Below, piece after piece: positions 1,106 to 4,213 of a stretch of 4,213 nt of DNA; positions within the stretch are counted from its first letter, which is position 1, and every line of letters starts with the position of its first letter. The DNA comes from a virus (taxonomy: Duplodnaviria > Heunggongvirae > Uroviricota > Caudoviricetes): the IMG/VR virus record IMGVR_UViG_2529292882_000010. One strand, given 5' to 3'. Below the pieces are notes generated by a model that was not told where the DNA came from, made no database searches, and saw nothing but the letters and a program-made list of their open reading frames with translations. Made by a program: the position numbers and the translations under genes.

Positions 1106-1154
1106 GATACCCATGGGTATCTAAAAAGTAAATACCCATGGGTAATTTTTTTTT
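1106..1154. promoter_or_regulatory. candidate OL-type operator pair: two copies of palindrome TACCCATGGGTA, then a T9 tract
   Basis: Seen in sequence: perfect 16-bp palindrome GATACCCATGGGTATC at 1106-1121 (core 1108-1119) and a second TACCCATGGGTA core at 1133-1144, centres 25 bp apart, followed by T9 at 1146-1154. Same TACC/GGTA half-sites as the three sites in the divergent region at 1630-1680. Inference: repressor binding sites. The second palindrome plus T-run could also act as a weak intrinsic terminator on the + strand. Confidence 0.55.
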
Positions 1155-1615: not shown

Positions 1616-1685
1616 ATAATAGATGCGATTACCGCAAGGTAAACAACCTGCAGGTATTGACTTTTGTTTACCTGTGGGTATTCTT
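1616..1685. promoter_or_regulatory. divergent OR-type control region: three TACC-N4-GGTA operators with candidate pR and pRM
   Basis: Seen in sequence: TACCGCAAGGTA (1630-1641), AACCTGCAGGTA (1645-1656, with perfect inner palindrome ACCTGCAGGT) and TACCTGTGGGTA (1669-1680). Rightward candidate promoter: -35 TTGACT (1657-1662), -10 TATTCT (1679-1684), overlapped by the third operator. Leftward candidate promoter on the - strand: -10 TATTAT (complement of 1616-1621), -35 TTTACC (complement of 1638-1643), overlapped by the first operator. Promoter calls are inference from consensus matching only. Confidence 0.55.
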
Positions 1686-1709: not shown

Positions 1710-1991
1710 ATGGAAGAATTAAGAATATTTCTCAATTCTCTTTCGTCAGATGAACAGCGTATGTTTGCATGCGAGTGTGGTACCAGCATCGGTTATCTAA
1801 GAAAGGCATTGAGTAAAGGTCAGGTGTTAGGGGCATCGTTATGTGTCCTTATTGAGCGAGCCAGTAATGGTGAAGTTACACGTCAGCAACTAAGGCCTTT
1901 TGATTGGATGAATATTTGGCCCGAGCTGGAAGATACCAAAACGTTAACACAACCACTTTCTAGGAGCTTGATTCATGAAAATCAAGCATGA
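1710..1991 (+). CDS. ydaS: Cro-like HTH protein (YdaS-like)
   Basis: Seen in sequence: 93-aa ORF, ATG at 1710 with AAGGAG (1699-1704) at 5 nt spacing, first gene rightward from the operator region. Contains the HTH-like segment GTSIGYLRKALSKG and the motif VTRQQLRPFDW, which I recall as typical of YdaS/Cro-like prophage proteins. Overlaps the next gene by 17 bp. Symbol assigned by family resemblance and gene order, not by verified identity. Confidence 0.7.
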   Translation: MEELRIFLNSLSSDEQRMFACECGTSIGYLRKALSKGQVLGASLCVLIERASNGEVTRQQLRPFDWMNIWPELEDTKTLTQPLSRSLIHENQA

Positions 1992-2400
1992 ACACATCCG
2001 CATGGCGATGAGTGCCTGGGCGCATCCGGACGGTGAAAAAGTTCCGGCAGCTGAAATAACCCGGGCTTATTTTGAGCTGGGTATGACATTCCCGGAACTG
2101 TATGACGACAGCTATCCGGAAGCCCTAGCTCGCAATACTCAGAAAATTTTCCGCTGGGTAGAGAAAGACACTCCTGATGCGGTTAAAAAAATTCAGGCAC
2201 TGTTACCAGCGATCGAAAAAGCAATGCCACCTCTGCTGGTGGCCCGAATGCGCAGTCACAGTTCAGCCTATTTTCGGGAGCTGGTGGCGACGCGGGAACG
2301 ATTGGTGAGAGACGCTGATGATTTTGTCGCAGTGGCGATCGCTGGTTTCAACCAGATGAATCGTGGTGGTCCGGCGGGAAATGCCGTGGTGATGCACTAA
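1975..2400 (+). CDS. ydaT: YdaT-like protein (proposed CII-like regulator family of Rac-type prophages)
   Basis: Seen in sequence: 141-aa ORF, ATG at 1975 with AGGAG (1962-1966) at 8 nt spacing, overlapping the cro-like gene. The N-terminus MKIKHEHI and the length match my recollection of the YdaT family, and the racR-ydaS-ydaT-like order supports it. From memory only; needs a homology search. Confidence 0.7.
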   Translation: MKIKHEHIRMAMSAWAHPDGEKVPAAEITRAYFELGMTFPELYDDSYPEALARNTQKIFRWVEKDTPDAVKKIQALLPAIEKAMPPLLVARMRSHSSAYFRELVATRERLVRDADDFVAVAIAGFNQMNRGGPAGNAVVMH

Positions 2401-2423: not shown

Positions 2424-3371
2424 ATGAGCAGCAAGCTTCATGGTCTTGTCTGGGAAGGGTGTGCCTTCACCGGCATGATCTTATCCAGGGTGGCAGTAAT
2501 GGCTCGCCTTGCAGATTACAGCAATGACGAAGGTGTGTCATGGCCTGCAGTGGAGACCATTCGTCGTCAGATTGGGGCAAAGAGTGAATCAACGGTTAAA
2601 GCTGCGATAGCGGAACTGGAAAAGAACGGCTGGCTGACGAAGGAGGAACGTAAGGTCGGTGGGCGTAATGAAAGCAATATCTACCGTCTTAATGTGGAAA
2701 AACTCGAAGCAGCAGCAGCGGCGGCGCGTGAGGCATATAAACCGAAAAGAAAAATTAGCCAGGCAAAAAATGACCCGTCAAATATTGCCCCCTCAACGGT
2801 TGACCCCTCAAATTTTGATGGATCAACCATTGATAAAAAACAGCCGGATAGGGGGGCGATGGTTGGCCCCGATCCGTCAGTATTAAAACCTGATCCGTCA
2901 GATAAAAGATCTTTTCGTCCGGAAGCTTCGCAACCGGACTCGCAGACGGCTGAACAGGATTTTTTAACCCGACACCCTGACGCTGTTGTGTTCAGTGCGA
3001 AAAAACGCCAGTGGGGTAGCCAGGAAGATTTAGCGTGTGCGCAGTGGATCTGGGGACGAATCGTGAGTCTTTACGAACAGGCTGCCAGCGATGATGGCGA
3101 GATCACGCGACCGAAAGCCCCCAACTGGACCGCATGGGCTAATGACGTGCGCACAATGCGGATGCTGGATGGCAGAACTCACAGACAAATTTGCGAAATG
3201 TTTGGTCGGGTACAGCGGGATCCATTCTGGGTAAAAAACGTCATGAGTCCGTCAAAGCTTCGTGAAAAATGGGATGAGCTGGTTATTCGTCTGGGGCGTT
3301 CGCCTGTACAGCGTTGCGTGAATCACATTTCTGAACCGGATACCGAAATTCCGCCGGGCTTCAGGGGGTAA
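2424..3371 (+). CDS. phage replication initiation protein (N-terminal winged-helix DNA-binding domain, repeat-bearing linker, conserved Trp-rich C-terminal domain)
   Basis: Seen in sequence: 315-aa ORF, ATG at 2424 with GGAG at 6 nt spacing. The N-terminal region (LADYSNDEGVSWPAVETIRRQIGAKSESTVKAAIAELEKNGWL) matches the pattern of HTH-type replication initiator N-domains. The central linker carries four DPS repeats encoded by direct DNA repeats. The C-terminal region is Trp-rich and resembles the conserved C-terminal domain seen on phage replisome-organiser proteins. Domain names are from memory. Confidence 0.8.
   Translation: MSSKLHGLVWEGCAFTGMILSRVAVMARLADYSNDEGVSWPAVETIRRQIGAKSESTVKAAIAELEKNGWLTKEERKVGGRNESNIYRLNVEKLEAAAAAAREAYKPKRKISQAKNDPSNIAPSTVDPSNFDGSTIDKKQPDRGAMVGPDPSVLKPDPSDKRSFRPEASQPDSQTAEQDFLTRHPDAVVFSAKKRQWGSQEDLACAQWIWGRIVSLYEQAASDDGEITRPKAPNWTAWANDVRTMRMLDGRTHRQICEMFGRVQRDPFWVKNVMSPSKLREKWDELVIRLGRSPVQRCVNHISEPDTEIPPGFRG
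2771..2915 (+). repeat. iteron array inside the initiator gene: candidate phage origin of replication
   Basis: Seen in sequence: four direct repeats of TGAYCCNTCA at 2771-2780, 2801-2810, 2870-2879 (CGATCCGTCA) and 2891-2900, with a degenerate copy near 2818-2828. Spacings are about 30, 70 and 20 bp. Followed by the AT-rich palindrome AAAAGATCTTTT (2904-2915). Four GATC sites fall within about 90 bp (2821, 2871, 2892, 2908). Established parallel: the lambda origin lies inside gene O as iterons plus an AT-rich segment. Confidence 0.6.
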
Positions 3372-3391
3372 GTGTTTATTTCAGCTCATGA

Positions 3392-3407
3392 GGTAATTTT
3401 CAGGAGG
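3392..3407 (+). promoter_or_regulatory. copy 1 of repeated RBS-containing junction module GGTAATTTTCAGGAGG
   Basis: Seen in sequence: the 16-mer at 3392-3407 is identical to 3809-3824. It contains AGGAGG immediately upstream of the TTG start at 3410, only 2 nt away. Confidence 0.6.
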
Positions 3408-3409
3408 AC

Positions 3410-3835
3410 TTGTGGCAAAAGTATTTACACAAGAAGAGCGGGAAAAAAATTAAGGGGCAGATTGTTGAACTTGTACGTCTGAGCGGTCGCGAGACGTTAC
3501 GGCAACTGGAAGCGAAAACAGGTGCGACAAGATATCTGATGAGTGTTCTCGCCAGAGAGCTGGTTGCCAGTGGCGATGTATACAATTCTGGCTACGGGTT
3601 ATTTCCGTCTGAACAGGCTCGTAAGGACTGGCAAAACGCCCGCAAAAAACTATCGAGGGCAAAGGCGAAGAAACCGGTTGTGGTTGATCCGGACCTTATC
3701 TGGTCATTACCAGACGGAGAAATACGCCGCTACGACAGGAGCCAGAACATAATCTGTCGCGAGTGCCGGAAGAGTGAGGTTATGCAGCGAGTGCTGGCGT
3801 TTTATCAGGGTAATTTTCAGGAGGTGATGGCGTGA
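3410..3835 (+). CDS. hypothetical phage protein (141 aa) with a predicted winged-helix-like N-terminal segment
   Basis: Seen in sequence: the only open frame here. It must start at TTG 3410, because there is no in-frame ATG or GTG before residue 44 and the N-terminal segment (IVELVRLSGRETLRQLEAKTGATRYLMSVLARELV) looks like a real HTH or winged-helix fold. The basic middle and C-terminal CxxC are noted. The stop TGA overlaps the next start as GTGA. Family not recognised. Confidence 0.65.
   Translation: MWQKYLHKKSGKKIKGQIVELVRLSGRETLRQLEAKTGATRYLMSVLARELVASGDVYNSGYGLFPSEQARKDWQNARKKLSRAKAKKPVVVDPDLIWSLPDGEIRRYDRSQNIICRECRKSEVMQRVLAFYQGNFQEVMA
3809..3824 (+). promoter_or_regulatory. copy 2 of repeated RBS-containing junction module GGTAATTTTCAGGAGG
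   Basis: Seen in sequence: identical 16-mer at the 3' end of CDS 3410..3835, where it encodes GNFQE. AGGAGG (3819-3824) lies 7 nt upstream of the GTG start at 3832. Confidence 0.65.
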
Positions 3836-4137
3836 GGGTGAGAGTCTATATCGCCGGTCCAATGACCGGGTATAAAAATTTCAACCGTGAGGCGTTCCAC
3901 AATGCGGAAGAGGAACTGAAACGGGAAGGGCATACAGTCTTAAACCCGGCAGTACTTCCGGACGGGCTGACACAGCCACACTACATGGATATTTGCATGG
4001 CAATGATTCGTTGTGTGGATGCGATTTACATGCTGAAAGGCTGGCAGCGGTCAGCAGGTGCTAAGGCAGAACTGGCACTGGCGGAGAAGCTGGGGCATGC
4101 AGTTATTTTTCAGGAGGCAACCAGTGAGCAACATTAA
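3832..4137 (+). CDS. DUF4406-family protein (nucleoside 2-deoxyribosyltransferase-like fold)
   Basis: Seen in sequence: 101-aa ORF with GTG start overlapping the upstream stop (GTGA). The N-terminal motif VYIAGPMTG, then NPA, then GWQRSAGAKAE match my recollection of the DUF4406 family common in enterobacterial prophages. Family name from memory. Confidence 0.75.
   Translation: MRVRVYIAGPMTGYKNFNREAFHNAEEELKREGHTVLNPAVLPDGLTQPHYMDICMAMIRCVDAIYMLKGWQRSAGAKAELALAEKLGHAVIFQEATSEQH
4102..4117 (+). promoter_or_regulatory. copy 3 (variant) of the junction module: GTTATTTTTCAGGAGG
   Basis: Seen in sequence: TTTTCAGGAGG at 4107-4117 inside the 3' end of the DUF4406 gene, where it encodes IFQEA. AGGAGG lies 6 nt upstream of GTG at 4124. 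Confidence 0.6.
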
Positions 4138-4213
4138 TTACCAGGCACTGCGAATGGCGGCAGAAAATGCAACCCCTGGCGAATGGTGTTCTGATGATTA
4201 CTATGGGGTAATT
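4124..4213 (+). CDS. partial CDS (5' end only, runs off the window); possibly an Ead/Ea22-like phage protein
   Basis: Seen in sequence: GTG at 4124 with AGGAGG at 6 nt spacing, open to the window end, translating VSNINYQALRMAAENATPGEWCSDDYYGVI. An in-frame ATG at 4154 is an alternative start. The QALR..AAE..ATPGEW pattern recalls N-termini of Ea22-like prophage proteins, but this is weakly remembered. It is not in the supplied ORF track because it is truncated. Confidence 0.4.
   Translation, partial: MSNINYQALRMAAENATPGEWCSDDYYGVI

Follow-up and report, generated by a model that had tools for sequence, protein, structure and literature searches.

Gene organization

The DNA analysed here, called the window throughout, is a stretch of 4,213 nt that megablast identified as a Rac-like lambdoid prophage of E. 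coli. It carries a rightward early operon with an O-like replication gene, a Ren-like DUF977 gene, a DUF4406 gene and an Ead/Ea22 gene, and the gene map was drawn from Pfam, PHROGs and the annotation of relatives (Table 1). A sigma-70 promoter candidate of the PR type was placed between the divergent repressor gene and the YdaS/Cro-like gene; this predicted promoter would drive the operon together with all three copies of the motif described below.

Table 1. Coordinates of the genes, the promoter candidate and the motif copies in the window
Feature	Position	Strand	Basis or remark
Repressor gene	1190-1609	minus	Pfam, PHROGs and relatives' annotation
PR-like sigma-70 promoter candidate	1657-1684	+	Consensus scan, TTGACT-16-TATTCT, 9/12
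YdaS/Cro-like gene	1710-1991		Pfam, PHROGs and relatives' annotation
YdaT/CII-like gene	1975-2400		Pfam, PHROGs and relatives' annotation
O-like replication initiator (HTH_36; PHROG 391)	2424-3371	+	Pfam, PHROGs; stop TAA 3369-3371
Intergenic filler, 20 nt, from O-like stop to copy 1	3372-3391	+	Variable among class-B relatives
Copy 1, GGTAATTTTCAGGAGG, DUF977 ribosome-binding region	3392-3407	+	SD AGGAGG 3402-3407, 4 nt before GTG 3412
DUF977 / LygF / Ren-like gene (PHROG 142)	3412-3835	+	+1 frameshift in A-run 3443-3449
Copy 2, GGTAATTTTCAGGAGG, DUF977 codons and DUF4406 SD	3809-3824	+	AGGAGG 7 nt before GTG 3832
DUF4406 gene (nucleoside 2-deoxyribosyltransferase-like; PHROG 355)	3832-4137	+	Pfam DUF4406 1e-37
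Copy 3, GTTATTTTTCAGGAGG, DUF4406 codons and Ead/Ea22-like SD	4102-4117	+	6 nt before GTG 4124
Ead/Ea22-like gene, 5' part (VSNINYQALRMAAEN...)	4124-4213	+	Runs off the window; overlaps DUF4406 by 14 nt

The genes opened by GTG 3412, 3832 and 4124 matched DUF977, DUF4406 and Ead_Ea22 in the Pfam and PHROG searches. The A-run in the DUF977 gene comprises seven residues in the window versus six in 203 of 207 relatives. As a result of this frameshift, the frame opened by GTG 3412 terminates at 3451-3453, and the body of DUF977 continues in the frame of an open reading frame that begins at TTG 3410. The repaired protein matched Pfam DUF977 at 3e-32 and PHROG 142 at 2e-48, and the gene also goes by the names LygF and "Ren-like exclusion protein". 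The 30 residues of the Ead/Ea22-like product present in the window matched Ead_Ea22 at 1.9e-6, and the homologue of this gene in Rac-SA53 is annotated as ead.

The repeated motif

The initial annotation of this DNA had recorded two identical copies of a 16-mer (copies 1 and 2) and a variant of it (copy 3) at three consecutive gene junctions, and the coordinates and sequences of all three proved to be exact. When up to three mismatches were allowed, the 16-mer gave three matches in the window, the expected number being 0.06, and three were never reached in 200 shuffles of the window that preserved dinucleotides; the core TTTTCAGGAGG occurred exactly three times against 0.13 expected. Each copy consists of a T-tract and a consensus Shine-Dalgarno (SD) sequence, 4-7 nt 5' of a GTG start, and all three lie on the coding strand of the rightward operon. 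The hexamer AGGAGG is present four times in the window, three of these being the motif copies.

Copies 1 and 2 are identical at all 16 positions, including ten bases beyond the SD. Local alignments of the 40-nt flanks, evaluated against shuffles, revealed no similarity among the copies (p 0.09-0.99), and the 20-nt filler preceding copy 1 did not significantly resemble the flanks of the other two copies. Since the flanks of the three copies are dissimilar, the repeat is an island of 11-16 nt alone. No terminators were found at the copies, and a literature search for the motif string returned unrelated eukaryotic sequences only, with no phage context found.

Predicted Shine-Dalgarno function and gene overlaps

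It had been noted that copies 2 and 3 lie inside the end of the upstream gene and supply the SD of the next gene with overlapping stop and start, and the coordinates and translations agree with this. Copy 2 is read in DUF977 as GGT AAT TTT CAG GAG (G-N-F-Q-E), the protein ending in ...FYQGNFQEVMA, and copy 3 in DUF4406 as GTT ATT TTT CAG GAG (V-I-F-Q-E), the protein ending in ...HAVIFQEATSEQH. The stop codon of DUF977 (TGA 3833-3835) overlaps the start codon of DUF4406 (GTG 3832-3834) in the tetranucleotide GTGA at 3832-3835, and the Ead start at 4124 lies 14 nt inside DUF4406 (overlap 4124-4137). The three AGGAGG sequences stand 4, 7 and 6 nt 5' of GTG 3412, 3832 and 4124, respectively, and the same starts are annotated in relatives. 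At copy 2 the SD is extended to AGGAGGTGAT (3819-3828), whose ten bases complement the 3' end of 16S rRNA, ...GAUCACCUCCUUA. As judged from the sequence, the motif is the predicted ribosome-binding site of three consecutive genes.

It is probably the SD function that is conserved at the motif. Relatives differ freely at its other positions (GGGGAATTTTC, GGGAAATTTC, GGAAACTTTC, TTTTCC), and the copy-3 site in most of them reads ATTTTCCAGGAGG, with TTC as the Phe codon; copy 3 matches the 11-mer exactly in the window because of a synonymous TTC to TTT change, which is a minority variant. In DUF977 tails that are followed by no overlapping gene, the SD is gone and the length is kept (...QGDVRYLLK versus ...QGNFQEVMA; also NVRYFRRY). 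The variants AGAAGG and AGGATG found in relatives accompany a degenerate-looking downstream reading frame.

Overlaps of the ATGA or GTGA kind with coupling are known from tightly packed bacterial and phage operons, for example from the nin region of lambda. The present junctions resemble translational coupling through an embedded SD in that the SD is strand-specific, closely precedes the start and, at copies 2 and 3, lies inside the upstream reading frame, with the GTGA and 14-nt overlaps described above. The translational coupling proposed for the whole operon is suggested by a classic layout at copies 2 and 3, whereas copy 1 departs from it: this copy begins 20 nt after the O-like stop, and the start at 3412 follows the O-like gene end after a 40-nt gap with no stop/start overlap. 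No structure sequestering the SD was predicted at the copies. Since the DUF977 frame is broken in the window, DUF4406 could not be coupled to it in the normal way here.

The motif in related prophages

Loci were collected through the DUF977 protein (92) and through the DUF4406 protein (80), about 170 loci and 787 kb in total; a further 120 loci obtained with the exact 16-mer served as context only and stand outside the counts. The presence of the motif at gene boundaries of related prophages, which the initial annotation had offered as a check, was borne out: in the 787 kb of protein-ascertained loci, which belong to closely related Escherichia and Shigella prophages so that many counts are not independent events, all 196 occurrences of TTTCAGGAGG were on the operon strand, and 193 of them lay 3-11 nt before an ATG or GTG opening a reading frame. 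The pattern GGAGG-N6-7-GTGAG accounted for 30 junction types with 110 occurrences on the plus strand and none on the minus strand. Matches to these junctions are present in about 2,000 of 5,426 complete genomes of E. coli. A contig scan with DUF977 yielded 12 loci, essentially all from Escherichia or Shigella or from MAGs that probably contain contamination from these genera.

Three whole related phage genomes contained AGGAGG 12, 20 and 11 times on the plus strand. Among these genomes, TTTC- or TTCC-AGGAGG before a gene start was confined to the DUF977 and DUF4406 3' ends of Rac-SA53, with one further TTCCAGGAGG elsewhere in the Rac-SA53 genome. As TTTC-AGGAGG is not generic in these genomes, the identity beyond the SD points to common descent of the junctions and not to convergence. 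The motif is not a general linker of the operon or of the phage, TTTC-AGGAGG being confined to the DUF977 5' region and to the DUF977 and DUF4406 3' ends.

The ribosome-binding region of DUF977

According to the RefSeq and GenBank annotation, DUF977 starts in relatives at the codon equivalent to GTG 3412 and reads MAKVFTQEEREKIKGQ... In related prophages, TTTCAGGAGG-(a/g)ctt-[AG]TG is located before DUF977 in three upstream contexts that are unrelated to one another. The first is the O-like gene, as in the window; the second is a DnaC-like ATP-binding gene, whose stop codon is the TAA or TAG of the motif (gtgaagTAATTTCAGGAGGacttATG); the third is a further gene that ends 14 nt earlier. Because the same motif, spacer and start stand behind three left contexts, copy 1 is DUF977's own ribosome-binding region. 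Where DUF1627 is located 5' of DUF977 the region reads TGAttgccGGAGGcgcttATG, and in one variant (L228) a DUF1627-type leader is joined to DUF977 inside the SD, giving a junction that lacks DUF1627.

Copy 1 also resembles the junctions between the DnaC-like gene and DUF977 (GTAATTTCAGGAGGactt), and copy 3 over 19 of 22 nt. A descent of copy 1 from the 3' end of a DnaC-like or type-2 gene was considered and rejected; matches of 21 nt and 26 nt were suggestive, and the 20-nt filler alone was not significant. Concerted evolution of copies 1 and 2 was also rejected, the table of copy-1 against copy-2 variants showing no covariation.

Boundaries between modules

The genes that follow the DUF977 motif in relatives comprise DUF4406, several Ead/Ea22 variants, a rac21-like gene (VSESKCQ...) and a methyltransferase-like gene (...ATILDMCCG); all the alternatives start with GTGAG on the upstream TGA, and at least five families occur at copy 2. 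DUF4406 is followed by Ead variants, a rac21-like gene, a VSNQWRPDICP gene or a VNIDATM gene. DUF977 has at least three motif-bearing left contexts and at least five right ones, and DUF4406 has at least four right ones. The DUF977 cassette has a boundary sequence at both sides.

The coincidence of breakpoints with the motif was evaluated by comparing the window (blastn) with the 92 loci collected through DUF977, using HSP ends right of position 2300. The ends clustered at the 3' edge of the motif, with 22 at 3824, 18 at 3826, 14 at 3829 and 7 at 4117; a further 17 lay at 3807-3822, and the interval 4113-4128 held 13 in total including those at 4117. The intervals 3807-3829 and 4113-4128 took 86 of the 178 ends right of 2300. 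At copy 1, 53 HSPs started at 3403-3413, and 19 ended at the O-like stop (3369-3371), which is itself a mosaic breakpoint. Megablast matches in the database ended at the same places.

The sequence preceding CAGGAGG varies (GGTAATTTTC, GGGGAATTTTC, GGGAAATTTC) with no link to the identity of the downstream gene, and the spacers between SD and start are common to different downstream genes, yet differ for one and the same gene. This mixing of spacers and left variants places the joints within the SD or immediately 3' of it, and similarity breaks in the few bases that separate the SD from the start codon. Five loci share another type of joint (L165), in which an unrelated gene contributes 14 codons (MTTITKERIELFIK / NPLEN...) that are fused to TTTTCAGGAGGcggtactGTGAG; with microhomology of TAA/AA only (about 3 nt), this is plainly an illegitimate joint at the motif. 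The same architecture also occurs without TTTC, for example at the junction of Ead with rac21 (cgcaaAGGAGGcagccaGTGAG).

Interpretation of the motif

The motif is probably, as far as can be read from the DNA, a translation-initiation region used by three successive genes that is also a module boundary of the operon. A U-rich tract with the full-consensus SD AGGAGG would serve the Ren-like DUF977, DUF4406 and Ead/Ea22 genes of an early operon presumably driven from PR. The genes are tightly packed, such that the predicted SD of the following gene is written in the last codons of the preceding one (TTT or TTC CAG GAG, Phe-Gln-Glu), and with start codons overlapping the upstream stop (GTGA or 14 nt) ribosomes ending one gene would probably restart on the next. 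The same short sequence marks the module boundaries of the operon, different prophages having different genes to its left and right. The complete identity of copies 1 and 2 would reflect a shared descent of the boundary sequences flanking the DUF977 cassette, and neither chance nor a general preference in ribosome-binding sites. Microhomology at the SD may channel recombination, or selection may keep those joints in which the SD-start unit works; a mixture of the two is favoured.

A dedicated recombination linker, in which exchange within the conserved 11-16 nt (by annealing of the RecET/Red type, for example) would itself cause the shuffling of modules, is a rather doubtful alternative. It agrees with a short island of identity amid unrelated flanks, with the alternative modules at both sides, with the breakpoints at the 3' edge of the motif and with the cassette-precise junction inside the SD in L228; the shared and differing spacers are also those expected from crossovers on either side of the spacer. 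The boundary-sequence model is established (PMC3233612, PMC3029335), and Rad52-like recombinases including the RecT of Rac handle diverged sequences efficiently (PMC3945230). Against the linker stand the illegitimate joint with its TAA/AA microhomology and the junctions without TTTC. The island of 11-16 nt is also shorter than the homology usually needed for efficient recombination by RecA or Red.

The products predicted from recombination between the copies also speak against it. Three junctions were built, joining the left side of copy 1 to the right side of copy 2 (DUF977 deleted), the left side of copy 2 to the right side of copy 1 (tandem DUF977) and the left side of copy 2 to the right side of copy 3 (DUF4406 deleted). 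Piece counts and spans were read for each match, since normal loci otherwise mimic full-length matches. Among 5,426 complete genomes of E. coli, the normal two-piece arrangement accounted for each of the 55 places with at least 80% coverage of the DUF977-deletion junction and each of the 6 with at least 80% coverage of the DUF4406-deletion junction; the best 8 of 176 places for the tandem-DUF977 junction were all normal, and exact scans of viral contigs with two patterns for recombinant junctions gave 0 matches, a search that covers exchange between copies within a genome and not exchange between genomes. Beyond coinciding with gene boundaries, the motif may act as a recombination site. The initial annotation had described it as acting as a mosaic recombination joint; its coincidence with mosaic boundaries holds, whereas copy-to-copy recombinants of the predicted kinds were not found and one joint is illegitimate.

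That copy 1 is the stranded 3' end of a DUF977-like gene coding for GNFQE, left there by a deletion or a tandem duplication, is quite unlikely. The initial annotation had suggested that copy 1 looks like a gene 3' end left behind after recombination, observing that it is in frame with the downstream gene, encodes GNFQE again and is preceded by an in-frame stop. Its 16/16 identity with the DUF977 3' end and the stop just upstream agree with this, and the description is literally true of the window: TGA 3389-3391 precedes copy 1 in frame, and copy 1 shares its frame with the long open reading frame 3410-3835. This agreement of frames, however, is due solely to the one-base insertion that gives A7 in the window, and in relatives copy 1 and DUF977 stand in different frames. 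The similarity does not extend leftward of the 16-mer, no tandem DUF977 junction appeared among the best 8 of 176 places or in the pattern scan of viral contigs, and the same motif, spacer and start stand behind the DnaC-like gene, which ends with the TAA or TAG of the motif. The proposed gene end left behind at copy 1 is not supported, the region being DUF977's own ribosome-binding site.

Chance or convergence, by which three strong ribosome-binding sites would be alike since the optimal site is a U-tract with AGGAGG, appears very unlikely. The SD itself is under functional constraint, and copy 3 fits the 11-mer through the minority synonymous change, both as convergence would have it; the 0 of 200 shuffles with three matches, the ten further identical bases in copies 1 and 2 and the fact that TTTC is not the usual context of AGGAGG in the three related phage genomes all argue the other way. 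A cis-acting RNA site common to the three genes, by which a single repressor protein or small RNA acting in trans would control their translation together, is highly improbable: the same sequence does stand at three consecutive initiation regions, and SD sequences containing GGA can in principle bind regulators such as CsrA, but no significant or conserved RNA structure was found around the copies (fold z -0.46, +1.30 and -0.03), no Rfam match near them at E<=1, and the positions outside the SD vary freely among relatives.

Comparison with models of phage mosaicism

Phage mosaics classically have module boundaries that fall together with those of genes. The origin of this mosaicism, by exchange at short conserved boundaries or by illegitimate joints followed by selection, is an old debate that is still open (PMC3233612, PMC3029335, PMC3945230). 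Conserved boundary sequences belong to the modular theory of Susskind and Botstein (1978) and were treated by Clark et al. (2001) for HK620, as summarised in PMC3233612 and PMC3029335. Compared with the lambdoid boundary sequences, the present locus likewise shows a short conserved sequence amid unrelated flanks at gene boundaries, with alternative modules and breakpoints; it differs in that the element here is simply a ribosome-binding site and in that the predicted copy-to-copy recombinants were not found.

The Hendrix/Juhala model assumes illegitimate recombination and selection for function (summarised in PMC3233612 and PMC3945230). The L165-type joint, with its microhomology of about 3 nt, and the coincidence of boundaries with functional units conform to it, whereas the uniform AGGAGG-N6-7-GTGAG over at least five unrelated downstream families is more regular than would be expected of selected random joints. 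Rad52-like recombinases such as Red-beta and the RecT of Rac recombine diverged sequences efficiently (PMC3945230, PMC2327257). Prophages of the Rac type encode RecET, as Rac-SA53 does, and exchange DNA with lambdoid phages, which offers a plausible enzymology for homology that is short or diverged; the experiments on these recombinases, in contrast, involved hundreds of bp at 78-98% identity, versus an isolated island of 11-16 nt.

The locus is a well-populated fresh example of the recognised conserved-boundary pattern and represents no new kind of element or mechanism. It is a clean and abundant natural example, in which the boundary can be identified as a ribosome-binding site with a GTGAG start. 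Cassette-precise variants occur in it beside at least one clearly illegitimate joint, and the locus could serve as a test bed for the mosaicism debate.

It is tempting to speculate, unlikely as this appears to us, that the boundary of T-tract and AGGAGG (with GTGAG) is an active crossover hotspot, that the ren/nin-like segment of Rac-type prophages behaves as an array of cassettes and that phage annealing recombinases, using the microhomology at ribosome-binding sites, swap single genes in it. If true, this would give direct mechanistic support to the linker model of Susskind and Botstein, with thousands of natural variants. Genes such as DUF977, DUF1627 and DUF4406 would then be subject to precise gain, loss and swapping.

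Translation starts and joints in the rightward operon

All genes 3' of DUF977 (the Ren-like gene) in the operon segment, in the window and in the related prophage loci L001-L295, begin with GTGAG (Val/Met-Ser) placed on the upstream TGA, and this arrangement is common to at least five unrelated gene families. The element GGAGG-N6-7-GTGAG was found 110 times on the coding strand of the related loci, compared to 0 on the opposite strand. In L004, as in at least 25 further loci, an Ead-like gene beginning VSEISYQASIT is located 3' of the motif at the DUF977 3' end; its frame from GTGAG is short, a 137-aa ORF begins 4 nt later in a different frame, and the gene may be frameshifted or its start mis-set.

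Joints at the motif were found in related loci. The L165 deletion joint (4266-4330), which also occurred in four similar loci, fuses a gene's first 14 codons (MTTITKERIELFIK), normally continued as NPLENGL..., straight onto TTTTCAGGAGGcggtactGTGAG, with a microhomology of TAA/AA only. At the DUF977 start region of L228 the usual leader of DUF1627 (aagtaattttaccgGGAGG) meets the DUF977 gtttATG inside the Shine-Dalgarno sequence, and DUF1627 is absent with cassette precision.

The A-run of DUF977 is A7 in the window versus A6 in 203 of the 207 related genes (A5 in three), and the frame opened by GTG-3412 is closed by a TAA shortly after it. The A7 either marks the gene as a pseudogene or is a sequencing error in the homopolymer. 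Four DUF977 loci of the E. coli prophage type (L124, L127, L128 and L129; 88-93% protein identity) lie on short contigs in MAGs labelled Collinsella, Veillonella parvula and Bacillota, where they are probably binning contamination.

Immunity region and repeats in the O-like gene

The paired palindromes jointly make a 16-bp hairpin, after which the minus strand carries a T-run; this could be a terminator or an operator that separates the repressor gene from the leftward genes. Rfam miRNA matches at this place were weak and spurious. The inverted repeat spans both promoter candidates, and its arms are probably operators of the immunity region. The iteron-like repeats recall the lambda origin, located within lambda O.

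Positions of sequence features in the window
Feature	Position	Strand	Description
Palindrome pair	1107-1144		two perfect 13-bp ATACCCATGGGTA, 25 nt apart
PRM-like promoter candidate	1643-1616	-	
Inverted repeat	1627-1683		20 nt, GATTACCGCAAGGTAAACAA / TTGTTTACCTGTGGGTATTC
PR-like promoter candidate	1657-1684	+	
Iteron-like direct repeats	2765-2904		TGA(C/T)CC(G/C)TCA(A/G)AT, ~4 copies, within O-like gene
DUF977 A-run	3443-3449		
TAA	3451-3453		
GTGAG start	3832-3836		
GTGAG start	4124-4128
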